Shown here: piece by piece, positions 4,155 to 60,218 of the stretch
Numbering within the stretch: the first letter of the stretch is position 1
How the letters are laid out: each line of letters opens with the position of its first letter
NCBI GenBank assembly: GCA_013288805.1
Contig: JABDBE010000001.1
Location: forward strand, 26,182-90,181
Length of the DNA: 64,000 nucleotides
Source: Acidobacteriota bacterium
GTDB lineage: Bacteria; Acidobacteriota; Terriglobia; Terriglobales; Acidobacteriaceae
Direction: 5' to 3'
Position numbers and translations under genes: made by a program
The notes under the pieces: model-generated
What the model was told of the DNA's origin: nothing
Database searches by the model: none
What the model saw: the letters and a program-made list of their open reading frames with translations, nothing else

Positions 4155-4376
4155 ACAAACAGCCGCTATTTTGAACCTATCTTGCGGTGCTTTCTAATCT
4201 TGTGGGTTTCTTTCAGGCCGAGAGAGTAGACAGGCCGTCCGCTTTCACTCCCTGCCACATCTAAATCCCGCGCCTTTCAGAGTGAATGAAACGACGCGGA
4301 GCCTGTCAATTCGAGCAGCAATAACACTGCACATTGCGACTGCTTGAGGGCAATCGGTGCCAAGGAGGCTCCCGGC

Positions 4377-5930
4377 GTGAACGTTCACCTGATCAATCCA
4401 AGCAGTGTGTCTTTTGGAACGGCGGTCATTACTCCGCGCTGGCAATACGTGTTAGCAGCGGCGACTCCGAAAAGTTTTGGCGACCCTGTGCTGGTCGATG
4501 AAACGCTAATCCAGTTGCGCCCCGAGTCGATTCAGGCCGGAGATGTAGTCGGCATCGGTATTCATACCGCGAACGCGCTGCGGGGTTACGAGATTGGCAA
4601 GGCGGCGCGCAGCCGGGGAGCGTATGTCATCTTTGGCGGAATTCACGCCACACTATATCCCGAAGAGGCGCTTGAACTGGGAGGAGCGCACTCGGTGGTA
4701 AAGGGTGACGGCGACCTGGCCTGGGCGAGAGTTCTCGAGGATTGCCGCGAGGGAGTGCCCAAGCCTCTTTACGTCGGAGGCCAGATCGAGGCCAGTGACT
4801 TCGTGGCTGCGCGCTGGGATCTGGTTCCTCGCAATCGCTATATGTGGGCTTCGGTGCAGACCGTACGTGGCTGCCCTAAGCATTGTTCTTTTTGCTCCGT
4901 CTGGCGCACCGATGGACAGCGGCCCCGCCAGCGCAGCTCCGATGTCGTGATCGAAGAAATCGTGCAGTTGCGCCGGCTGGGCTTCCGTTTTATTGCGCTG
5001 GCGGATGACAATTTCTATCCCGTCACCCTGACCGATCTTAGCCTCGCGATTCAGCAAAAAAACACCGTCCGGGTGAACGAGCTGAAATCCATACGGGCAG
5101 AACGATTTGAACTGATGTCTCGACTTTCGAAACTTCCCGACGACATGGTTTTCTTTACCCAGATCACCATGGAAGCGGCCGAAGATCCCGAATTTCTCGA
5201 TGCCATGAAAGCCGCGCGCATCAAGGGCGCGCTGGTGGGAGTCGAATCGGTCACGCCAGAAGGACTGAAAGATGTCTACAAAGATTTTAACCTCGCCGGC
5301 GAGAAGCTGACGGAGCAACTTCGCACATTCCGGCATCATGGCGTGCATGTCTTGGGCTCTTTTATTTTTGGCCTGCCCAGCGACCGTCCCGAAACCTTCG
5401 CGGCCACAGCCGCTGCGGCCATCAGCGCTGAATGCACATTCGCACAATTCGTATTGCTTAGCCCTTACCCTGGCACCGTCGATTTCAACCGTTGGGAAAA
5501 GACGCTAGGCGATAACCCGCCAACCATCGCCGGAATTCCGCTCACCCGGCGCTGGCTTATTCCAGAGCCGCTCCGTCCCAAGCTGTATTGGGACCATCCC
5601 GTGATGTCAGGCGAAGAGATCCGTTCCCGTACCCAGGCCGTGTGGGACAGCTTCTACGGTTGGGGGCAAATTTGGAAGCGTTCGCGTTTCATCAAATCTC
5701 GCCGGGGACGGGTGGCTTTTGTGCTCATCTCCAGAATTTATCGCATGATGTATGCCGACACCGGCCTTGCCACGGATAGCGCGCGCCTTACCTGGTCCGG
5801 GCGCTGGGCCCGGTGGATGGCAAAGCCTTGCAGGCGTCACTTTGCGGGCCGCCCGATGCCAGATCTCAAGGTGCCAGAAGCCCGGAAACCGGAGTTCGAC
5901 ACGTCATCGTTGGTTTCCTTGTCGTCCTAG
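4377..5930 (+). CDS. B12-binding-domain radical SAM protein (class B), function unknown
   Basis: CxxxCxxC cluster motif (VRGCPKHCSFCSVW) after an N-terminal Rossmann-like B12-binding region. GTG at 4377 lies 8 nt after AAGGAGG; the track ORF starts at TTG 4344. Confidence 0.85.
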   Translation: MNVHLINPSSVSFGTAVITPRWQYVLAAATPKSFGDPVLVDETLIQLRPESIQAGDVVGIGIHTANALRGYEIGKAARSRGAYVIFGGIHATLYPEEALELGGAHSVVKGDGDLAWARVLEDCREGVPKPLYVGGQIEASDFVAARWDLVPRNRYMWASVQTVRGCPKHCSFCSVWRTDGQRPRQRSSDVVIEEIVQLRRLGFRFIALADDNFYPVTLTDLSLAIQQKNTVRVNELKSIRAERFELMSRLSKLPDDMVFFTQITMEAAEDPEFLDAMKAARIKGALVGVESVTPEGLKDVYKDFNLAGEKLTEQLRTFRHHGVHVLGSFIFGLPSDRPETFAATAAAAISAECTFAQFVLLSPYPGTVDFNRWEKTLGDNPPTIAGIPLTRRWLIPEPLRPKLYWDHPVMSGEEIRSRTQAVWDSFYGWGQIWKRSRFIKSRRGRVAFVLISRIYRMMYADTGLATDSARLTWSGRWARWMAKPCRRHFAGRPMPDLKVPEARKPEFDTSSLVSLSS

Positions 5931-6024
5931 TCGGAAATGTGGGAGACGTGCTCTCACATGCGGCGGGACGTTGGGCTCTGTCCCACTGGTACAATTCCTT
6001 CAGCAATCTCTTCCCCGTGCTCCT

Positions 6025-7272
6025 ATGCCTGCGTTCGCCAAAACCATCTTCCACGTAGACATGGACGCGTTCTTCGTCTCGGTGGAAGAGCTGTTCGATC
6101 CTTCACTCAAAGGCAAAGCTGTGGTCGTAGGAGGCCAGCGTGACGAGCGGGGCGTAGTCTCGGCTGCCTCCTACGAAGCACGTAAATTTGGAGTTCATTC
6201 GGCCATGCCGCTGCGTACGGCGGCCAAGCTTTGTCCGCATGCCATCTTCGTAAACGGCCATCCTGAGCGGTATCGCGAATGCTCCGAGAAAGTTTATCGC
6301 GTACTCACATCCTTCTCGCCGCTAGTCGAGATGGCGTCGATTGACGAAGCCTACCTCGACATGACCGGCACCGCGCGCCTTCATGGCCCACCTTTATGCG
6401 CCGCTCATGCTCTTCACCAGAAGATAAAATCCGACACGCAGTTGAACTGTTCGATTGGAATCGGTGTCTCGCGCCTGATTGCCAAGGTTTCTTCTGCCAA
6501 GGCCAAGCCGCATGGAATTCTTTGGGTCATTCCCGGGCAGGAAACGAAGTTCCTCGCCCCGCTCGACGTACGTGATATTCCAGGCGTTGGAAAAGTTACC
6601 GAGCAAAGCCTGCACGCCCTGGGCGTTCAGCGCGTCGGCGACCTCGCTCGCTTCAACGATGCGTTTCTTCAAGAACACTTTGGCAAGTGGGGTCTGGCGC
6701 TGGCCGGCAAGGCGCGCGGAGAAGACGCCGGAGGATGGTTTGACACCGAGGTCGGCGCCGACACCGATCCCAAATCCATCAGCCACGAACATACTTACAA
6801 CGAAGACACCGCCAATCCCGACCAAATCGAATCAACATTGATGCGCCTCTCCGAGATGGTAGGCCGCCGCCTGCGCGAGCATGGATTGCACGCGCGTACC
6901 ATTCAACTCAAACTCCGCTACAAAGATTTCACCACCATCACGCGCGCTCATAGCTTGCCCGCTCCCACACAGCTCGACACCGAAATCTTTGAGCAGGCGC
7001 GCGCTCTGTTTCGCAAGAACTGGCGGAAGGGATCCCAGGTCCGCCTGCTCGGCGTGCACGCATCGTCGTTTCAAAGCGCATCGCAACAGGAAGACTTGAT
7101 CGAAGGCGCGCGCCGACAACGCTGGCAGCAAGTTTTCTCTGCCGCCGACCGCCTGCGCGACAAATTCGGCGAGTCGACCGTGTCCTTGGCCAGCGGATTA
7201 AAAGGCGGCTTCCGCGAGCGCACCCACGAAAACCCAGCGGGCTTGCCCGGCAAGAGCAAAGGGCAACAGTAG
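6025..7272 (+). CDS. dinB: DNA polymerase IV (Y-family)
   Basis: Canonical start MPAFAKTIFHVDMDAFFVSVEE at Met92 of track ORF 5752..7272. Also SIDEAYLD. Confidence 0.9.
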   Translation: MPAFAKTIFHVDMDAFFVSVEELFDPSLKGKAVVVGGQRDERGVVSAASYEARKFGVHSAMPLRTAAKLCPHAIFVNGHPERYRECSEKVYRVLTSFSPLVEMASIDEAYLDMTGTARLHGPPLCAAHALHQKIKSDTQLNCSIGIGVSRLIAKVSSAKAKPHGILWVIPGQETKFLAPLDVRDIPGVGKVTEQSLHALGVQRVGDLARFNDAFLQEHFGKWGLALAGKARGEDAGGWFDTEVGADTDPKSISHEHTYNEDTANPDQIESTLMRLSEMVGRRLREHGLHARTIQLKLRYKDFTTITRAHSLPAPTQLDTEIFEQARALFRKNWRKGSQVRLLGVHASSFQSASQQEDLIEGARRQRWQQVFSAADRLRDKFGESTVSLASGLKGGFRERTHENPAGLPGKSKGQQ

Positions 7273-32511: not shown

Positions 32512-33756
32512 TTATCCTAAGTACTTCAAGAACTTTCCGGGCTGATTGTCGAAGCCGGGAAAAACCTGATTGAGATCTTTGTTTCCCAGGTGGTTGTACA
32601 CCGCTTCTCCTAAGACTTGTCGGAAATCTGTGGTTACGGCCAAGTCTCGGCCTTCGTAGAGTTGCGATTGATCGAGGCCCGGCCAGCGTCCGTAGACCTT
32701 GCCGCCTTTGACCGGACCACCCATTACGAACATCACGTTGGCGTGACCGTGATCGGTGCCACGGTTTCCGTTTTCGCGGGCGGTGCGTCCGAACTCGGAC
32801 ATGGTCACGACCACCGTGTCTTCGGCGAGGTCGCCGAGGTCGGTCCAGAAGGCTGCTATGGATTGGGAGAATTCGTGCAGGACGTTGGCGATCTGGCCTT
32901 GCGTGCTGCCTTCGTTGACGTGATGGTCCCAGCCGCCGATGTCGGTGAAGGCGACTTGAACTCCGAGATTCGCTTTGATCAGTTGCGCGAGTTGCTTGAG
33001 GCTGTCGCCGAAGTGTCCGCCGGGATAGTCGGCGGCCGCGGCGGGCTTGTATTTCGAAGGATCGGCAGATCGCAGCATCTTTACCGCGTCGAAAGTTTCC
33101 TGACCGGTGCCGTGCAACACGGAATCGACCGAGTGCTCGTACATGGCTTCGAAGCTATTGGCATTCGGCGACGCTTTGGGATTGTTTCCACCTACGCCGA
33201 AATCGTTGATGTTGTTGATGGCGACTGCGGGCTCGCTGCCGGAAAGAATTCGCGGCAGGGACGGTCCGAGGGCGATGGCGCGAAAAGCGTCAGCCGATGC
33301 GGGTTGAGGTAATGAATGTAATGACCGGTTCAGCCAGCCGTCTTCGGTTGCTTTTATTCCGGGCGTCCCCGATTCCATAAAGTCCTGCGCGTCGAAGTGG
33401 GAGCGAGTTGGATCGGGCGATCCCACGGCGTGCACGATTGCCAGATGACGCTGCTTCCACAAAGGCTGAAAGGGCGAGAGCGAAGGATGCAGCCCGAAGA
33501 ATCCGTCGAGATCAAACACGGCGTTGCGCGGTATATTGATGGACGGCCGCATGGCATAGTAGGCGCGCTCGTGGTGGGGCACGACGATGTTGAGGCCATC
33601 AGCCGCGCCGCGTTGGAAGATGACGACCAGGCGCTTATTCTTTGCCCCCAGCGATTCCGCTGCGTACGCGGCACGAGTGAGAAACGCCGGAATCGCTGCT
33701 GTGCCTACGACGGCTAGGCTGCTGTTTTTCAGAAATACACGCCTCGTGATTGACAT
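32512..33756 (-). CDS. DUF1501 domain protein (Tat-exported, sulfatase-like fold)
   Basis: Twin-arginine-type signal (SITRRVFLK). C-terminal SEFGRTARENGNRGTDHGH. Confidence 0.9.
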   Translation of the reverse strand: MSITRRVFLKNSSLAVVGTAAIPAFLTRAAYAAESLGAKNKRLVVIFQRGAADGLNIVVPHHERAYYAMRPSINIPRNAVFDLDGFFGLHPSLSPFQPLWKQRHLAIVHAVGSPDPTRSHFDAQDFMESGTPGIKATEDGWLNRSLHSLPQPASADAFRAIALGPSLPRILSGSEPAVAINNINDFGVGGNNPKASPNANSFEAMYEHSVDSVLHGTGQETFDAVKMLRSADPSKYKPAAAADYPGGHFGDSLKQLAQLIKANLGVQVAFTDIGGWDHHVNEGSTQGQIANVLHEFSQSIAAFWTDLGDLAEDTVVVTMSEFGRTARENGNRGTDHGHANVMFVMGGPVKGGKVYGRWPGLDQSQLYEGRDLAVTTDFRQVLGEAVYNHLGNKDLNQVFPGFDNQPGKFLKYLG

Positions 33757-33767
33757 ATAAACTCCTA

Positions 33768-33798
33768 GGCTCTTGGCTTCTGGCTTCTGGCTTCTGGC
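33768..33798. repeat. tandem heptamer TGGCTTC (about 3.5-4 units)
   Basis: Lies between the DUF1501 start and the DUF1800 stop. Confidence 0.6.
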
Positions 33799-33867
33799 GA
33801 TGCTTTCGTGCTCACAGTTGCTTATGTGAAGCCCAGTCTTCAGTAGTTCTTAGTTCTCGGTTCTCCG

Positions 33868-35835
33868 TTATCTTCTTTGAAACTCGGGTGACCCTAACAG
33901 CAAGCCTGCGATCAGGCTGGTGTTTGGCGGCCGGGCTGGATCGTCCAGCTTGCGATGGCTGATTTTGGAATCCTGCAAACGCGCGCTGATGACGTCGTGC
34001 GTCTGCTTGGAAACATCTCCGGCCAGAAGGCTATTCTCTAACACGGCTAAGGCCTGTTGCGGATCTTTTTGTTCGGTGAATTGATTTACTTGTACGCCTT
34101 TTACTTTTCCGGACGTCAGCGCCAGAGCAAAATTCATGCGGCCCAAGAGTGCGGAGGAGTTGACCCACGCGTCAGCCTTCATGGAATAGCCGGTGGGGGG
34201 CTGCATGCCGTAGAGTTGCATGCCCATGTTTTGAAGCTGGCGTGCAATGGGCATGGCGTCGGTGACTTCGGCTCCGCTGGCGCGAACCGCCGAGACTACG
34301 AACTCCAGCGGAGTTTTCACTTTGGCGCGATAGGCATTGGGCGCCCAGAACTCGGGCGAGTCCAGCATCGTCTTGAGTACCTCACGGATGTTGCCGTCTT
34401 TCTTTAAGAAGGTTTGCGCCATGCGATCCACCAAGGGCTGCGGCGGTTGGTCGGACACGAAGCGCATGGCGAGTTTGGTGCAGATGAATTTCGCGGTCGC
34501 AGGATTTCGTGCCAGGATATGCAGAACCTCGAAGCCTTCCTTCTCACCTTTTGGTTTGATGCGATGCCCGAGCACAATCTTGTCTCCGGGTTCATGCGTG
34601 CGCTCCTCGAAAGTGAAGCCACCACCTTGCTTGGGCTGCTTCAGTGTCCATCCGGTGAAGACGCGCGCTACTTCGGTCACATCTTGCTGCGTGTAGCCTC
34701 CATTCACACCGAGAGTGTGAAGTTCCATCAGTTCGCGGCCATAGTTTTCATTGAGTCCGTTACGCTTGCCCTTGGATTGGCTGGTTTGAGCTTTGTTTCT
34801 GATTCGCCGCCTCGATTGATTGTTGGCCTGCTTGGGGATGCCGTTGGCGACATCGGAGTTTGGTCCAACGCTCAGCCAATTGTCGAGATAGAACAGCATG
34901 GCGGGACTCTGCGCGGTGGCAACCAGCAAGTCTTCAAATTTGCCCAGGGCGCGGGGACGAATGACGTCGCGCTCGTAGCTGGTGAGCAGGTAGCGATCGG
35001 CGCCTTTGCCGATGAAAACATTGAAGTGATTAAACCAGAAGTCGGTCATCACTTCCTGCAACTGACGATTGCTGCAAATGGCGCGCAGCAACTTGCCTTC
35101 GACGAGTTCGTTGTTGACCACCTGTTGAGGGTGGTCGAGTGCCTCGACGGTTTCGCGCTGTCGCGGATTCATCCCTTCCATAAACTCGTCGCGCTTGTCG
35201 CCTTGAAGGGCGCCAGTCAGGGCGCGTCGATCTTCCGGTGACATTTCCAGCACCGCTTTCATACGCTGGTCTGTTGGCAGGTCGAGGAGTTCTTCGATTT
35301 TTTCATCAGCTGCAGCGCGTTCTTGCTGGCGGCGGGTGCGTTCGTCGTCCGCGACTTTGTCGGCACCAGCGACGGCAGTCTGCTGCTTGCGGTCTTCTTT
35401 GTCCTGGTAGCGCTCCAGTTGGGCCTGATAAACGGCGCGCTTCAGGGGATCAGAGGGAAGCGACTGCTTTCCGTCGGCGACAGCTTTGATCATTTGCTCG
35501 GACGGAAAGTTCTGAACAATCTCTCGCGTGTCCATGCGCAGGGTGCGAAATGGAGAGAGGCGGGCATCGAGCGCATCGTCATTAATTTTTTCGGGATGAA
35601 GTTGCTGATCGATCCACTTGTCCACGCCGATTGCCAGCACGTGATCGACGTCGCCGGGGCGAGGGCCGAAGGTCAGACGGTTGAGCGCGTGCACCGCCTG
35701 TTTCTGCTCGTCCATTTGCGGATTGGCTGTGGGATGTTTGTCTTTTTTCTTACCCAGCGCCAGTTGAACGGAGATGGCGAATCCTGATAACGAGAGCAGA
35801 AGGATTAGGCCGATTTTGAGGCGTCCCAGGTTCAT
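33868..35835 (-). CDS. DUF1800 domain protein
   Basis: 655 aa. DFWFNHFNVF motif. The usual upstream partner of DUF1501. Confidence 0.9.
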   Translation of the reverse strand: MNLGRLKIGLILLLSLSGFAISVQLALGKKKDKHPTANPQMDEQKQAVHALNRLTFGPRPGDVDHVLAIGVDKWIDQQLHPEKINDDALDARLSPFRTLRMDTREIVQNFPSEQMIKAVADGKQSLPSDPLKRAVYQAQLERYQDKEDRKQQTAVAGADKVADDERTRRQQERAAADEKIEELLDLPTDQRMKAVLEMSPEDRRALTGALQGDKRDEFMEGMNPRQRETVEALDHPQQVVNNELVEGKLLRAICSNRQLQEVMTDFWFNHFNVFIGKGADRYLLTSYERDVIRPRALGKFEDLLVATAQSPAMLFYLDNWLSVGPNSDVANGIPKQANNQSRRRIRNKAQTSQSKGKRNGLNENYGRELMELHTLGVNGGYTQQDVTEVARVFTGWTLKQPKQGGGFTFEERTHEPGDKIVLGHRIKPKGEKEGFEVLHILARNPATAKFICTKLAMRFVSDQPPQPLVDRMAQTFLKKDGNIREVLKTMLDSPEFWAPNAYRAKVKTPLEFVVSAVRASGAEVTDAMPIARQLQNMGMQLYGMQPPTGYSMKADAWVNSSALLGRMNFALALTSGKVKGVQVNQFTEQKDPQQALAVLENSLLAGDVSKQTHDVISARLQDSKISHRKLDDPARPPNTSLIAGLLLGSPEFQRR

Positions 35836-45502: not shown

Positions 45503-46951
45503 TCAGCGTTGGCGGTTCATATAAACCTGCAGAACTTCCTGCATGACGCTTTTCAAAGGCACATGGCATTCAGCCGCAATGCGCCGGCAATCCTCATATT
45601 CAGGAGCATAATTCGTGACTGTGCCATTCATGCTGGCAACCTTCATCCGTATATCGCCCCATCGGGTCGCTATCGTCACCCATTCTCGCGCGAGTGTTTG
45701 ACGCTTTTCCTCCCGCTGCCGCACGCCTAGCGTCGACGTTTCCGTGAAAATCAGATCCATCATTTTCGGTGCATCCTCGTTGCGGCAAAGAACCGTTAGC
45801 AGCATGCCCGGGCGATTCTTCTTCATCTGCACGGGCATGCCAAAAGCATCCAGCGCGCCCTCCTCGAGCAAACGGTCCATCACATAGCCGAAGACTTGCG
45901 GATTCAGGTCGTCGATATTGGCCTCGAGCACGGTGATCGTATCGCAAGGGATCCCCGCCGTAAATTCCGGCTGACTTTCGCCGATGGCAAGCCGCAAAAC
46001 ATTCGCGTGTCCGGCAAAGTCACGAGTGCCTGCACCGTAGCCGGTCTTTTCTATTTTCATTGCCGGAAATGGCGCGAATCGTTTTGCCAGCGTTTTGACG
46101 ATGGCCGCGCCAGTTGGTGTGACTAGTTCGAATTGGATTCCAGACGAATACACCGGCGCATCTTTCAACAACTCGAGCGTCGCCGGCGCCGGCACGGGCA
46201 AAGTTCCGTGGGCGCACTTCACGGTGCCTCCGCCAACGTTCAGCGGCGAACAGACGATTTCGTCGACCCCGAGTGAGTCAACCCCAACTGCGGCGCAGAC
46301 AATATCCACCATCGCGTCCACCGCTCCTACTTCGTGAAAATGGACTTTCTCGATGGTGGTGTCGTGAATCTTGGCCTCTGCTACGCCGAGCGCTTCGAAG
46401 ATAGCGAGAGCTAAGGTTTTCGCCCCGTCGCTAATTGCCGCCTTGCGGATAATGCCGCGGATTTCATTCAGCCCACGTCCATGTTCATGGGAATGGTTGT
46501 GAGCATGCTCGTGTTCGCGCGATGCTGGCTTCGCATCGCGATGCGCCTCGACCAGCGCTGATGCGGTTCTGGTCGGCGAAGGTCTTTGCCCTTGCAACGC
46601 ATAATTGTGCTCTAACAAGGCGATCGGTTCAGATTCGTGAGCACTCGCGTGTTCGAGCTCGTGAATTTGTGGATGAGCCCGTTCCTCGTGTTCGTGGGCT
46701 GGTCCAGAATGTTCTTCGTGCTGCTCCAGATAAGCCTCGCGTGGCTGGTCCTTCTCGCCATGCGAATAAACATCTGCCTTAATTGCACTGATGCCGTTAC
46801 GCTTAACCCGAGAAATCTCCAGCCGGGCATCGATATTCAGCGCCGCGACCGTTTGCTCGAAGAGTTGCTTCGGTACACCGGCATCGACCAGCGCGCCCAG
46901 AAACATGTCGCCGCTGATGCCGGAAAAACAATCAAGGTAGGCTATACGCAT
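45503..46951 (-). CDS. larC: nickel-pincer cofactor biosynthesis protein LarC (DUF111) with His-rich insert
   Basis: MRIAYLDCFSGISGDMFLGALVDAG N-terminus. HEHEHAHNHSHEHG tract. Confidence 0.9.
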   Translation of the reverse strand: MRIAYLDCFSGISGDMFLGALVDAGVPKQLFEQTVAALNIDARLEISRVKRNGISAIKADVYSHGEKDQPREAYLEQHEEHSGPAHEHEERAHPQIHELEHASAHESEPIALLEHNYALQGQRPSPTRTASALVEAHRDAKPASREHEHAHNHSHEHGRGLNEIRGIIRKAAISDGAKTLALAIFEALGVAEAKIHDTTIEKVHFHEVGAVDAMVDIVCAAVGVDSLGVDEIVCSPLNVGGGTVKCAHGTLPVPAPATLELLKDAPVYSSGIQFELVTPTGAAIVKTLAKRFAPFPAMKIEKTGYGAGTRDFAGHANVLRLAIGESQPEFTAGIPCDTITVLEANIDDLNPQVFGYVMDRLLEEGALDAFGMPVQMKKNRPGMLLTVLCRNEDAPKMMDLIFTETSTLGVRQREEKRQTLAREWVTIATRWGDIRMKVASMNGTVTNYAPEYEDCRRIAAECHVPLKSVMQEVLQVYMNRQR

Positions 46952-55658: not shown

Positions 55659-56426
55659 TTAGTGGACTTGCGCTACACGACTCACGGCATTCTTCAACGC
55701 TTCGGCATCGAACCCGAAGGGTCCTGGTTTGCTTTTGTACGCCACGTGGCCGGTCGCATCGATCAAGTAAAGGCGGTCTGGCCAAGCCGTGTACGCCTGT
55801 TCCGTCGAGTTGCCGAATTCATCGAGTACGGCAGGAATATCGATCCCGAGCTTGCGGACGCAGGCACCCGCGGCGAAACTACGTTCTTCTTCGCTCCTCG
55901 GACTGGCGAAGACAACATTGTCCTTAATATTGCTCTGCATCTGCCAGACGTCGCTGGGGTGCGCCTCGGTAATGTACACCACCAGAAACGCGACTTGCTT
56001 TCCGTATTGCTGGTAGAGCTTGTTGAGGGCAGGAACCTCCCGCCGAAATGGAGGTCAAGTGTAGCTTCCGAAGATCAACACCACCGGTTGTCGTTGAGCG
56101 GTAAACGCCGACAACTGCACCTGTGCGCTTTTGTCCAGCTTCGTCAGAGTAAAGTCGGGCGCAGGATCTCCCACACGCAGTTTGCCGGCACGAGCACGCA
56201 TCCACAAGGTTTCAAATGGAAGCACGAGAAACGCAACCGGACCCGGTATTCGCGCCATGACCCGCGCAAAGGTCTCTGGCGATTGCCGCATGACTGCGTA
56301 GAGCGACCCGCAGGCGAACACCCACAAGAGTGCGATCACACCCAATGTTGCGAGCAATCTTCTGCGCACAGATCTGCGCTTTGCGGTCAAGTGTTCCTCG
56401 TCCATCTGAAGTTGATCTGAGCCCAC
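55659..56426 (-). CDS. membrane-anchored iodothyronine-deiodinase-like thioredoxin-fold selenoprotein (in-frame TGA = Sec at 56055-56057)
   Basis: Track ORFs 56055..56426 and 55659..55982 share one frame, separated only by TGA. The junction reads FGSYT-U-PPFRREVP...VYITEAHPSDVW. An N-terminal TM helix is present. The start is GTG 56426 or ATG 56405. Confidence 0.8.
56028..56044 (-). other. SECIS-like hairpin GGCGGG-AGGUU-CCUGCC beginning 11 nt after the UGA
   Basis: 6-bp stem (one G-U) with a GGU-containing pentaloop. A competing hairpin GACCUCC...GGAGGUU is also possible. Confidence 0.55.
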
Positions 56427-56438
56427 GAGAGTTACGTG

Positions 56439-56466
56439 ATTATAGAGACAGCAAAGGGCTGGTCAA
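56439..56466 (-). promoter_or_regulatory. sigma70-type promoter TTGACC-16 nt-TATAAT for the selenoprotein gene
   Basis: The -35 box is at 56466-56461 and the -10 box at 56444-56439 (minus strand). The predicted TSS lies a few nt upstream of GTG 56426. Confidence 0.5.
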
Positions 56467-56519
56467 TAATGTGAAAGTAGTAGAAGTGCGACGATCACTG
56501 GTCTTCCGAGGCCGCATCG

Positions 56520-57899
56520 TTGGAACTTGCCCCGCCCGCGTTATATCCTCGGAGCGTGCTTCGCCCGCTTGCGTCTGGCCGCTCTCCAACCCCGGGTTTG
56601 TTCCTGGGGCTCATCATTACTCTCGCTGCGGTAGTGGCGTATTCGTGGTACATCACGGTGCAAATTTCGGGGCTTCGCGAACTGCAAAACGGCCTTGCTG
56701 GCCGGAATCGCAAAGACTCGCTTCAACTCCTGCGCATCCAGAATGATTTGAATTCACTCGCGCTCGCCATGCGCGACATGCTCGACAACGACGAACCGTA
56801 TCCGCTCACCGCGTGGTCGGCGCAGTTCGAGCGCATCCGCGCGGACTTGGACGACGCGCTCAAGCTCGAAGAGCAAGTCGCAGTGGCCGAGCGTACTCCC
56901 GAGCAAAGAGAATTCTTGAGCAATTCGATAGCGCAATTCTGGGATGCCGTCGATCGTACGTTCGCTCTTGCTCGTGACCGCGAGCAAAACGACGCGCGCA
57001 CGCAGATTCGCGTTTCGTTACAAGCGCGTCAGGCGGCCCTGAGCACGGCGGTCGCGCGGTTGCTGGTGCAGAACAACGAAAGCGAAGAGCAGGTCGCGCT
57101 GCGCATCGGGCGAATCTACGATCGTGTACAGAAGCAGGTCTACATATTTTTTACGGCGATCCTGATCGCGATTCTGCTCACCAGCTTGTACCTCATCCAA
57201 TCCAATCGCCGGCTTTTCGCCCAGCTTGCCGCGCTCTCCGAGCAACGCAGCGAACTGGCTCAGAAGCTGATTTCAACGCAAGAGTCGACGTTACTGCACA
57301 TATCGCGCGAGCTTCACGACGAGTTCGGACAGATCCTGACCGCGATTGGATCCATGCTGAGCCGCGCCCGAAATCACGTGCCGGAAGACTCGCCACTGCG
57401 CGCCGAGTTGCGAGAAGTTTCGGAAATCGCGCAGTCTACGCTCGACAAGGTCCGCAGTCTTTCGCAGGCGCTTCATCCCGTTATGCTGGATGAAGCAGGA
57501 CTTGAGAGTACGATTGACTGGTACATCCCGACGGTGGAAAGACAAACTGGAATTGAAATATCCTACGTGAAATCGGGAACGCCGTTTCCAGTGAACGGCA
57601 GCGTGGGCGTCCATATTTATCGCATCCTGCAGGAGGCTTTGAACAACCTCGCGCGCCATTCTGGAAGCCGGCAAGCGTGGGTTCGGCTTCGTTTCATGCC
57701 GGAGAGTTTGGAGCTTGAGGTTGAAGATCACGGCACTGGATTTGTGGAAGGCACCGCAAGGTCAGGCATTGGACTGGTCGCGATGCGCGAGCGCGCGGAA
57801 TTGTTGGGCGGGATCATCGAATTTCTCAAGCCGGCAGAAGGAGGAACCTTGGTTCGTTTGAGAGTCCCAATCGAAAAAACGGAGCCGCATGTCCAATAA
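56520..57899 (+). CDS. sensor histidine kinase (HisKA_3 / NarX-DesK type)
   Basis: ISRELHDEFGQILTAI H-box and an HATPase_c C-terminus (GIGLVAMRERAELLGG). The TTG start is uncertain. Confidence 0.85.
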   Translation: MELAPPALYPRSVLRPLASGRSPTPGLFLGLIITLAAVVAYSWYITVQISGLRELQNGLAGRNRKDSLQLLRIQNDLNSLALAMRDMLDNDEPYPLTAWSAQFERIRADLDDALKLEEQVAVAERTPEQREFLSNSIAQFWDAVDRTFALARDREQNDARTQIRVSLQARQAALSTAVARLLVQNNESEEQVALRIGRIYDRVQKQVYIFFTAILIAILLTSLYLIQSNRRLFAQLAALSEQRSELAQKLISTQESTLLHISRELHDEFGQILTAIGSMLSRARNHVPEDSPLRAELREVSEIAQSTLDKVRSLSQALHPVMLDEAGLESTIDWYIPTVERQTGIEISYVKSGTPFPVNGSVGVHIYRILQEALNNLARHSGSRQAWVRLRFMPESLELEVEDHGTGFVEGTARSGIGLVAMRERAELLGGIIEFLKPAEGGTLVRLRVPIEKTEPHVQ

Positions 57900-58518
57900 G
57901 ATTTCCGTGCTGCTAGTCGATGATCACAGCCTGGTGCGCCGCGGCTTCAGGCGCATCCTCGAGGATGCTCGCGATATTACAGTTGTGGGAGAGGCCAGCG
58001 ACGGAGTTGAGGCAGTCAAACTTGCAGAGCAACTACGCCCGCAATTGATCGTGATGGACTGCGCTCTTCCAAACATGAGCGGATTAGACGCCACCCGGCG
58101 CATTCTCGAGAAGTTCCCTGAGACGCACATCTTGATGTTGAGCATGCACTCCGAAGATACCTGGGTGCATCAGGCGCTCGATGCCGGCGCTCACGGGTAC
58201 ATTCTGAAGAGCGCGGTTGACATGGAGTTGGTGACGGCCATCCGCCGAGTCGTTGCGGGAGAAATTGTGCTCGACCCGCAAGTGAGCCGCGCGACCAATT
58301 TGAAGGGCGAAGGAAAATCCGGACTCACGGTACGTGAACTCGAAGTGCTGAAACTGATCGTCGCGGGCAAGTCGAACAAGGAAATTGCGATCGATCTGGA
58401 CCTCAGCGCGAACACGGTCGCCGTTCATCGTGCCAATATCATGGATGCCCTCGGAATCCACAAAACTGCCGAGCTCGTGGTCTACGCTATTCGGAGCGGC
58501 CTGGTGAACATTCGGTGA
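57889..58518 (+). CDS. response regulator, NarL/LuxR family
   Basis: REC domain (VLLVDDH...VMDCALP) plus LuxR HTH (LTVRELEVLKLIVAGKSNKEIA). Overlaps the kinase stop by 11 nt. Confidence 0.92.
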   Translation: MSNKISVLLVDDHSLVRRGFRRILEDARDITVVGEASDGVEAVKLAEQLRPQLIVMDCALPNMSGLDATRRILEKFPETHILMLSMHSEDTWVHQALDAGAHGYILKSAVDMELVTAIRRVVAGEIVLDPQVSRATNLKGEGKSGLTVRELEVLKLIVAGKSNKEIAIDLDLSANTVAVHRANIMDALGIHKTAELVVYAIRSGLVNIR

Positions 58519-60218
58519 ACCGTCGATCTTTCTTGCGCGGGCTCGCAGGTGCTGCATCGGCTTCAGTGCTGCCGCTCGAATTATTCGCCGGCGCGGCGCC
58601 AGAAATATCCAGCCCAGGTTTCAAGCTCGTCGACGTTACCCGCTCAGCTGGCATCCAATTCCAGCACAACAGCGGCGCCTACGGAGGTAAACTTCTCCCG
58701 GAGACGCTCGGCTCAGGCTGCGCCTTTCTCGACTACGACCGCGACGGCTGGCAGGACATTCTCCTTGTTAATGGCATGGACTGGCCAGGCCACAAGCGGC
58801 AAACGTCCACGCTCCAGCTCTACCGCAATAACCGCGACGGCACGTTTACCGATGTAACCCGCAAAGCCGGCCTCGATGTAGAGATGTACGGAATGGGTGT
58901 CGCCGTGGGCGATTACAACAACGACGGCTTCCCCGACATCCTGATCACGTGTGTTGGTCAGAATCGGCTTTTCAAAAATACCGGCAAGGGCACATTCACG
59001 GACGTTACGAACTCCAGCGGCCTCGGCAAGCGCCAAGCCATGAGTACATCCGCGCTATGGTTTGATTTCGATCGCGACGGCCGGCTCGATCTCTTTGTCT
59101 GCAATTACGTGAAGTGGTCGCCGGAGCACGACGTGTTCTGCAGCCTGGATGGAAAACATAAGTCCTACTGCACGCCCGAAGCCTACCGCGGAGAAACCTG
59201 CTGGCTCTTTCACAATCGCGGTGATGGAACTTTCGAGGATGTCACCGCGACCAGCGGCATTTTCGACAGCAGCTCGAAATCGCTCGGCGTCGCCATCCTC
59301 GACTACGACCAGGACGGCTGGCCCGACTTGCTCGTAGCCAACGACACCCAGCCCAACAAACTTTATCGCAACGCGCACAATGGCACGTTTAAAGATGTCG
59401 CCGTTGAAGCGGGAATCGCCTTCAGCGTCGACGGCAAGGCGCGCGCTGGAATGGGTGTCGATGCCGCCGATTTCGACAATTCAGGTACAGCCGGCGTGGC
59501 CATTACGAATTTTGACAACGAAATGATCGGGCTGTATCGCGCCCTCGGCAACGGCACGTACGAAGATATCGCGACCCAGGCCGGCGTCGGACTTCCTTCG
59601 AAAAGTACACTGGGATTCGGTTGCATGTTCCTCGATGCCAACCTCGACGGCATGTTGGATCTACTCGCGGCCAACGGGCACATCGACGACACCGTGCGCA
59701 ACATCCGCGGCAACATCGGGTACGCGCAACCGCCGCAGCTTTTTCTGAACACAGGGAAGAGAACCTTCCGCGATGTGACTTCAGAAGTCGGCGACGCATT
59801 CGGTCAGCCCAAGGTCGGACGCGGTCTCGCCTACGGTGATTTTGATCGTGACGGCGATCTCGACATTCTCATGACCACCAACAACGGACCGGCTTATCTC
59901 TATCGCAACGACCAACTCGCGGGGAACCGTAGCATCCGCTTTCACCTTGTAGGAAAGCAATCCAACCGCGATGCAATCGACGCGACGGTGCGAATTTATT
60001 ACGAGGGCACGACGCAATCCCGTACGGTCAAGAGTGGATCAAGTTACCTGTCACAATCTGAACTTCCCGTCACGTTCGGTCTGGGAAAGCGTGATGAGAT
60101 TGAACGCGTAGTAATTCAGTGGCCCAACGGCAGAACCGAAGAATACAAAAAACTCGCGGCGGGCAGGGTTTACGATTGCGTTGAGAGCGCGGGGATTACT
60201 CCGGGTGCAGGCTTTTGA
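58515..60218 (+). CDS. CRTAC1-family protein (FG-GAP/VCBS repeats plus ASPIC/UnbV domain), Tat signal
   Basis: MNRRSFLRGLAGAAS. Repeated D-x-D-x-DG-x-x-D loops. C-terminal ...SGSSYLSQSELPVTFGLG. The GTG start overlaps the regulator's TGA. Confidence 0.88.
   Translation: MNRRSFLRGLAGAASASVLPLELFAGAAPEISSPGFKLVDVTRSAGIQFQHNSGAYGGKLLPETLGSGCAFLDYDRDGWQDILLVNGMDWPGHKRQTSTLQLYRNNRDGTFTDVTRKAGLDVEMYGMGVAVGDYNNDGFPDILITCVGQNRLFKNTGKGTFTDVTNSSGLGKRQAMSTSALWFDFDRDGRLDLFVCNYVKWSPEHDVFCSLDGKHKSYCTPEAYRGETCWLFHNRGDGTFEDVTATSGIFDSSSKSLGVAILDYDQDGWPDLLVANDTQPNKLYRNAHNGTFKDVAVEAGIAFSVDGKARAGMGVDAADFDNSGTAGVAITNFDNEMIGLYRALGNGTYEDIATQAGVGLPSKSTLGFGCMFLDANLDGMLDLLAANGHIDDTVRNIRGNIGYAQPPQLFLNTGKRTFRDVTSEVGDAFGQPKVGRGLAYGDFDRDGDLDILMTTNNGPAYLYRNDQLAGNRSIRFHLVGKQSNRDAIDATVRIYYEGTTQSRTVKSGSSYLSQSELPVTFGLGKRDEIERVVIQWPNGRTEEYKKLAAGRVYDCVESAGITPGAGF

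Follow-up and report, generated by a model that had tools for sequence, protein, structure and literature searches.

A deiodinase-like gene of the Terriglobales with an in-frame UGA codon predicted to encode selenocysteine

Introduction

Deiodinase-like proteins containing selenocysteine (Sec) or cysteine, and associated with a bacterial selenocysteine insertion sequence (SECIS), were described from the Sargasso Sea in 2005 (PMC1088965). Marine deiodinase-like selenoproteins, with MBO99264.1 as representative, also appear in reviews of 2022 and 2026; function has been established for no bacterial deiodinase-like member (PMC1088965 and review). Acidobacteria were credited with selenoproteins already in 2006 (PMC1794560). 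Occallatibacter riparius DSM 25168, a cultured member of the Terriglobales, has been classed as Sec-utilizing, the criterion being SelB or SelA plus SelD, and Data S1 of the same deep-Sep paper (2025) lists an AhpD-like protein, FdhA and a 'Deiodinase-like protein' as its selenoproteins (PMC12013277). Here we describe a gene of the deiodinase family in an uncultured bacterium of the Terriglobales (Acidobacteriota; assembly GCA_013288805.1, contig JABDBE010000001.1, positions 26,182 to 90,181). This stretch of 64,000 nucleotides is referred to as the window. With a probability of about 0.92, we suggest that the locus is a single Terriglobales gene in which UGA is read as Sec, and whose product, about 250 residues long, has one membrane helix at its N-terminus and a thioredoxin-fold domain of the deiodinase type.

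Over 242 residues, the identity between the window protein and the deiodinase-like selenoprotein of O. riparius is 53%. The two share an N-terminal anchor, an identical FGSYTUPPFRREVPALNKL segment, the EAHP(S/T)DVWQMQSN motif and a conserved cysteine. O. riparius DSM 25168 belongs to the Acidobacteriaceae and to the same order, Terriglobales, as the source of the window, but species and gene are different. Since this ortholog is included in Data S1 of PMC12013277, the acidobacterial clade has already been catalogued. Current knowledge is thus not overturned by the present gene, as both the family and an acidobacterial ortholog stand in selenoprotein catalogues. PMC12013277 gives the O. riparius sequence only; the bulged and covarying SECIS, the occurrence in hundreds of species and the gene neighbourhood are results of the present analysis.

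The marine selenoproteins resemble the window protein in belonging to PF00837, in carrying Sec within FGSxTU, in having a bacterial SECIS and in having Cys-containing homologs. The marine representative differs in its identity of only 25%, in its U-S-E-C (UxxC) motif, in the absence of PSDxW and in a gap of 13 residues where the insertion lies. U-P-P-F and YIxEAHPSDxW, in contrast to the marine UxxC form, are common to the acidobacterial clade and the animal deiodinases. Judged by its active-site motifs, the clade is more animal-like than the marine one, and is the bacterial group most similar to the animal deiodinases in this respect.

A single frame interrupted by TGA

A single frame of the minus strand, from GTG 56426 to TAA 55661-55659, has TGA 56057-56055 as its sole interruption. 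A mechanical list of open reading frames (ORFs) gives two entries here, 56055..56426(-) and 55659..55982(-). A preliminary description of this DNA, made from the letters alone, had proposed that the two share a frame and are split only by this TGA, and that the 24 codons after it contain neither a stop codon nor ATG, GTG or TTG. Both statements hold, and the latter explains why the second listed ORF has GTG 55982 as its start. Across the junction, the sequence is QPVVLIFGSYT-[TGA]-PPFRREVPALNKLYQQYGKQVAFLVVYITEAHPSDVWQ. Counted from GTG 56426 the gene has 255 codons, and from ATG 56405 it has 248. The GTG is kept in the closest relatives and the ATG is lost in one of them (L002); either may be the start codon.

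It should be noted that an open frame flanking a TGA is not in itself unusual in the window, which has a G+C content of 56% and 68 TGA sites with open frame on both sides in the six frames. We checked all 68 for other selenoprotein genes, and none besides 56055 resembled a coding junction. Because such sites are common and the folding energy of the single hairpin is unexceptional, the case rests on homology and on comparative evidence.

Conservation of the TGA and selection downstream of it

Related loci were collected by two scans. The scan of one genome per GTDB species gave at least 355 confirmed stretches, of which the best 80 were analysed; almost all of these are labelled as Terriglobales or as Acidobacteriota metagenome-assembled genomes. 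The second scan, of metagenomes, was seeded with an alignment of the Cys-form protein and gave at least 595 confirmed stretches, from which 80 loci were analysed.

TGA is found at the Sec codon in 162 of the 163 non-Cys related loci fetched. Among the species genomes it is present in 79 of 80, with CGA in the remaining one, and among the metagenome contigs in 80 of 80, although that scan was aimed at Cys-form DNA. In the alignment with homologs, the TGA falls exactly on the Cys/Sec column, where it had been expected from the letters alone; in the protein database, 22 homologs have Cys in this column, and 47 of the 120 best homologs have 'W'. In the related Terriglobales genomes from soil and peat that were examined, the predicted selenoprotein clade is near-universal, and it is almost fixed in the Sec form.

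Across the 80 genomes (dS about 1.4), dN/dS is 0.084 over the 131 codons after the TGA versus 0.100 over the 75 codons before it, and nucleotide variation is concentrated at third codon positions. Purifying selection acts alike on the parts before and after the TGA. We conclude from these similarly low values that the downstream half is translated in the same frame.

A few copies have other residues at the catalytic position. Locus L055 has CGA at 6334 and locus L169 (257-976) has GGA, with the hairpin described below still intact in L169. At the protein level, Ser, Arg and Val are found in P0037, P0049 and P0072, respectively. These non-Cys, non-Sec variants are mostly one substitution away from TGA and could be recent inactivations, polymorphisms or sequencing errors. 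In addition, two loci from bins assigned to other phyla, labelled Polyangiales (L018) and Candidatus Binatus (L035), contain Terriglobales-type copies with 75-77% identity on short contigs, which are probably binning errors rather than cases of horizontal transfer.

A SECIS-type hairpin in the coding region

The bacterial SECIS model has an apical loop of 3-9 nt, an upper stem of 4-16 bp, a G in the first two loop positions at 16-37 nt from the UGA, and a minimum free energy of at most -7.5 kcal/mol (PMC13188914). In the window, the sequence GGCGGG-AGGUU-CCUGCC (56044-56028) folds at -11.1 kcal/mol. It lies within all of these published values, with a GGU (or AGGUU) loop, a 5-bp upper stem and a spacing of 16-17 nt.

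The fold that is common to the family differs somewhat from the plain stem. With positions numbered from the U of the UGA, it consists of the pairs 14-31, 15-30, 16-28, 17-27, 18-26, 19-25 and 20-24, with position 29 bulged. In brief, two outer pairs and a bulged nucleotide lie below an upper stem of 5 bp that is capped by a GGU loop. Over 133 distinct 42-nt sequences, 98.2% of the cells are paired in the bulged fold versus 85.1% in a contiguous 6-bp stem, and the latter was rejected as family consensus for this reason. The pairing of the bulged fold was matched by none of 500 shuffles, and slid registers did not come close either. The window sequence, with CCC at positions 29-31, can form either register, the contiguous one here with 7 bp (14-30, 15-29, ...) and equally possible. 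The preliminary description had thus placed the hairpin correctly and given its geometry in agreement with the bacterial model, while its 6-bp stem is not the consensus of the family.

Several observations show that the hairpin is maintained. Pair 15-30 covaries (CG 54, GC 50, GU 23, UA 2, other 4), and so does pair 20-24 (AU 114, CG 7, GU 3). In the loop, G22 is invariant, and G21 and U23 are conserved at 90% or more. Synonymous entropy over the 80 genomes is zero for codons +4, +5 and +6 (CGG CGG GAG), and 1.6-1.8 bits for the two Pro codons just before them. Pro +8 is encoded only by CCU or CCC and Ala +9 almost only by GCC or GCU, exactly the choice that keeps the pairing with G. A few sequences, in which RRE is changed to RSG and A to E, rebuild a UUCGGG/CCCGAA stem at the same position. 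In a small comparison, all four distinct Cys-form genes examined lack both RREVPA and the hairpin. Covariation defines the small SECIS of the clade well.

A covariance model of the UGA and hairpin segment, run on the window, found its own site and one weak other match of 18.7 bits at 4403-4428(-). The weak match has only the string TGACCGCCGTTCC in common with the segment and has no hairpin. We rejected it as a chance match, antisense to a radical-SAM gene.

Protein family and fold

With Cys in place of the stop, the read-through product matches Pfam PF00837 (T4_deiodinase) with 115.6 bits (cut-off 27, E 2.8e-33), covering residues 65-242 and profile positions 63-234 of 237. Membership in this family had been predicted from the hallmark FGS-x-T-(U/C)-P-(P/S)-F with EAH-x-SD-x-W downstream, which is found here as FGSYT-U-PPF and YITEAHPSDVW, and it is confirmed by the profile search and by the structural relatives given below. 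NCBIfam NF038285 (deiodinase_rel) gives 186.3 bits at a cut-off of 250, with model positions 177-340 of 347 matched. The product is related to, but not a member of, that equivalog.

Weak matches to Pfam AhpC-TSA and Redoxin were also found, with 46.7 bits for AhpC-TSA (PF00578) versus 115.6 for PF00837. The active site of peroxiredoxins has the motif PxxxT/SxxC, in which the peroxidatic Cys comes three residues after the Thr. In IFGSYT-U the Thr adjoins the Sec, and no Pro stands four residues ahead of it. The name 'peroxiredoxin' used in public data is therefore a superfamily label.

The best PDB relatives by sequence are the catalytic cores of mouse Dio3 (4tr3, 1e-23) and mouse Dio2 (9h48, 1e-21). 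An AlphaFold model was made of the 73%-identical ortholog P0001 in place of the window protein. In the model (pLDDT 95.2), a thioredoxin fold comes after a long N-terminal helix. Foldseek with this model gave 4tr3 and 9h48 as top matches with TM scores of 0.79-0.82 on target, followed by ResA, CcmG and TlpA-type oxidoreductases and peroxiredoxins at 0.8-0.87 on target. The single N-terminal transmembrane helix, also anticipated in the preliminary description, is the hydrophobic segment LLATLGVIALLWVFACGSLYAV, which has a Kyte-Doolittle 19-residue mean of 2.27 and is present throughout the family alignment.

Like vertebrate Dio1-3 (4TR3, 9H48), the window protein has one N-terminal transmembrane helix and then a thioredoxin-fold core, with FGS-x-T-Sec-P-P-F, Y-I-x-E-A-H-P-S-D-x-W and a Ser/Thr/Tyr/Glu/His network. 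FGSYT-[TGA]-PPF aligns residue for residue with FGSCTCPPF of Dio3. The deiodinase active-site hydrogen-bond network and the roles of its residues have been described (PMC11592359). Conserved from that network are FGS-Y-T-U-P-P-F, the Y144/E147/H149/W154 motif and an insertion of deiodinase length, 20 residues here and 17 in Dio3. Within the family alignment, E147 and W154 are invariant and H149 is conserved at 90% or more. YITEAHPSDVW forms the near edge of the deiodinase-specific insertion and is followed by the 20-residue loop; with the residue roles given in PMC11592359, it carries part of the proposed proton relay. The differences from Dio1-3 are that the SECIS is a 3'-untranslated region element there and a coding-region hairpin here, that thyroid hormones are not an expected substrate here, and that the domain here probably faces outward from the membrane. 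The conserved Cys182 also differs in position from Cys239 of Dio3.

ResA, CcmG/DsbE, TlpA-like proteins and peroxiredoxins are structural neighbours of the protein, with which they have in common an N-terminal anchor and the weak AhpC-TSA and Redoxin matches. The window protein differs from them in lacking both CxxC and PxxxTxxC, and in having the deiodinase insertion and Sec. We suggest that the catalytic domain is probably extracytoplasmic, on the outer side of the membrane that anchors it, based on the basic N-terminal tail before the helix, the ResA/CcmG-like structural neighbours and the envelope-type gene neighbours. The features of the locus are listed in Table 1.

Table 1. Features of the deiodinase-like locus, with positions in the window
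Feature	Position	Strand	Basis
Predicted selenoprotein gene, membrane-anchored deiodinase-family product	55659..56426	-	Single frame; Pfam PF00837
In-frame UGA, predicted to be read as Sec (residue 117 counted from ATG 56405)	56055..56057	-	Conservation; Cys column; dN/dS
SECIS-type hairpin, beginning 10 nt after the UGA	56027..56044	-	Pairing; covariation; zero synonymous entropy
Apical GGU loop of the hairpin (A-GGU-U)	56035..56037	-	Matches the N1-G-[G/U]-N-N2 pattern (PMC13188914)
Thioredoxin-fold deiodinase-type catalytic domain, residues 65-242	55680..56213	-	Pfam; PDB; Foldseek
Single N-terminal transmembrane helix, residues 17-38, after KRRSVRRR	56292..56357	-	Hydropathy
YITEAHPSDVW motif (Y144, E147, H149, W154)	55944..55976	-	Aligns with YIEEAHPSDGW of Dio3
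Conserved Cys182, candidate resolving thiol	55860..55862	-	Cys in most shown rows of the alignment
Sigma-70-type promoter TTGACC-16-TATAAT	56439..56466	-	11 of 12 consensus positions
Divergent neighbours: HisKA_3 histidine kinase, LuxR-type response regulator, FG-GAP/UnbV_ASPIC protein	56520..60218	+	Pfam

Weighing the selenoprotein reading

Several results weigh against the reading of the locus as a selenoprotein gene of the deiodinase type. ARAGORN found no tRNA-Sec in the 64-kb window or in the related loci, and the window contains no tRNA genes of any kind and no genes of selenium metabolism. Pfam scans of the 38 window genes detected no SelA, SelB or SelD domains, and tblastn did not detect SelA or SelD in the window and 1.4 Mb of related loci, with approximate E. 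coli sequences as probes. The single-sequence folding energy of the hairpin is not significant compared with shuffles (z about -1, 39 nt). Rfam gave no match, neither for the whole window at gathering thresholds nor for 55950-56110 with E up to 10, which we take to mean that Rfam has no usable model for this element. The proposed topology rests on a weak charge asymmetry. Finally, the positions of His219, Arg275 and Cys239 of Dio3 are occupied here by Pro, Pro and Ile, and deiodinase activity can therefore not be taken for granted. These three residues define the thyronine-specific animal enzymes and not the Pfam family.

The in-frame TGA could be a genuine nonsense codon, leaving a pseudogene or a truncated membrane fragment of 123 residues only. 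Gene callers do stop at this TGA, many database entries are of half length, and the Sec machinery was not seen in the window. A dead 3' half would not, however, stay conserved: the TGA is kept across species in the non-Cys loci at a dS of about 1.4, and the dN/dS of the 131 downstream codons effectively refutes this explanation, to which we give very little credence. It is barely conceivable that the two entries of the mechanical ORF list are two genes, one for a small membrane protein ending at the TGA and one for a C-terminal thioredoxin-like fragment starting at GTG 55982. Such a division would halve the active-site strand and helix (FGSYT-U-PPF), and the 24 codons that separate the GTG from the TGA show the same conservation as the rest. 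GTG 55982 encodes the conserved Val of LVVYITEAH and is not a start, and the Cys-form homologs are single polypeptides.

The UGA could also be read through with an amino acid other than Sec, by reassignment to Trp or Gly (codes 4/25), by near-cognate read-through, or by insertion of Cys with a tRNA(Sec)-like tRNA(Cys). The Trp that JGI pipelines placed at this site in 47 homologs would agree with such a reading, and both Cys-charged tRNA(Sec)-like tRNAs and allo-tRNAs are known in bacteria, the allo-tRNAs also in Acidobacteria (PMC7609411). TGA is, however, the ordinary stop codon in 14 of 38 other Pfam-supported window genes, which excludes a reassigned genetic code, and the 'W' is TGA in the DNA. 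Trp or Gly in the catalytic Cys/Sec column would be chemically senseless. The hairpin fits a SelB-type SECIS model, and the host of the O. riparius ortholog is classed as Sec-utilizing by the SelB or SelA plus SelD criterion. We consider read-through with another amino acid quite improbable and retain Sec as the preferred reading of the UGA.

Proposed decoding and chemistry

We propose the following for the Sec-containing protein. A ribosome at UGA 56057-56055 would meet SelB carrying Sec-tRNA(Sec), recruited by the hairpin at 56044-56027, and Sec would be inserted as the catalytic residue in FGSYT-U-PPF. The most likely chemistry would then be an attack of the Sec117 selenolate, supported by the S114/T116/Y144/E147/H149 network, on an electrophilic substrate atom. 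This atom could be a ring-bound halogen of an aromatic compound, an oxygen of a peroxide or a sulfur of a disulfide. The resulting Se-X intermediate would be resolved by the conserved Cys182 together with an external thiol reductant.

The animal-type active site and the insertion are kept almost letter for letter, and on these grounds we tentatively raise a more specific function, which we nevertheless regard as unlikely. The protein might be a Se-dependent, cobalamin-independent reductive dehalogenase at the cell envelope, acting on iodinated, brominated or chlorinated phenolics that occur naturally in the organic matter of soil and peat, partly controlled by the neighbouring two-component system and working with FG-GAP/ASPIC proteins. 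If this were true, the dominant soil phylum would gain a role in halogen cycling, and the gene would point to the kind of bacterial enzyme that is ancestral to the animal thyroid-hormone deiodinases. The cultured host O. riparius makes the question of the substrate experimentally tractable.

Annotation in public data

The preliminary description expected gene callers to report a truncated fragment or hypothetical proteins, and public data contain such calls in several forms. Many database entries are halves that end in ...FGSYT or start just after it. The 47 homologs with Trp at the Sec column lie in the range P0001-P0062 and are mostly named 'peroxiredoxin'. In P0001 the 'W' corresponds to TGA in the DNA (L168 249-980), and the Trp forms are short-contig gene calls (JGI) to which an alternative genetic code was applied. 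In one 'G' form the codon is truly GGA. The error is very common, with hundreds of public copies present as two fragments, as a Trp 'peroxiredoxin' or as an antisense hypothetical protein.

The antisense calls concern an ORF of 252 aa that spans the whole predicted selenoprotein gene, at 55662-56420(+) in the window and 2028-2786 in L161, and has no Pfam match. In the Logan assembly of SRR8432534, the gene caller annotates this antisense ORF in place of the real gene.

Promoter and gene neighbourhood

The near-consensus promoter reported just upstream of the gene in the preliminary description was recovered (Table 1). Both hexamers are kept in five close relatives (L001, L002, L003, L006 and L008), and the spacer between them is variable. 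The closest relatives also keep a block, CTACTACTTTCACATTATTGACC at window 56439-56485(-), that lies upstream of and includes the -35 hexamer. This block may bind a regulator or act as an UP element, and it lies in the intergenic region that the gene has in common with the kinase operon.

The closest genome loci among the matches listed, L001 and L002, show 91-93% identity and have the neighbours conserved. The trio of kinase, regulator and ASPIC protein adjoins the gene in about 26 of 77 genome loci, in three arrangements. It also adjoins a 52%-identical Cys form (L163 1-11365), beyond which TPR/multihaem-like and further ASPIC proteins are encoded. In L163, a TPR/multihaem-like protein of 951 aa begins at the stop codon of the deiodinase gene. 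Based on synteny, the trio may be functionally linked to the deiodinase-like gene. About 31 other loci have LemA-DUF2207 upstream and an S8 peptidase downstream. As the neighbourhood is not uniform, no function can be assigned from the operon; the neighbours in both contexts are envelope-type proteins.

Other features of the window

A radical-SAM/B12-binding ORF at 4344-5930(+) overlaps an ORF for a Y-family DNA polymerase (IMS) at 5752-7272(+) by about 180 nt. The Pfam match of the polymerase begins at residue 102, and the true start is therefore probably further downstream. The window also encodes a DUF1501/DUF1800 gene pair at 32512-35835(-) and a LarC-type nickel-insertion protein at 45503-46951(-). 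An M13 peptidase identical to that of the window occurs in environmental assemblies.

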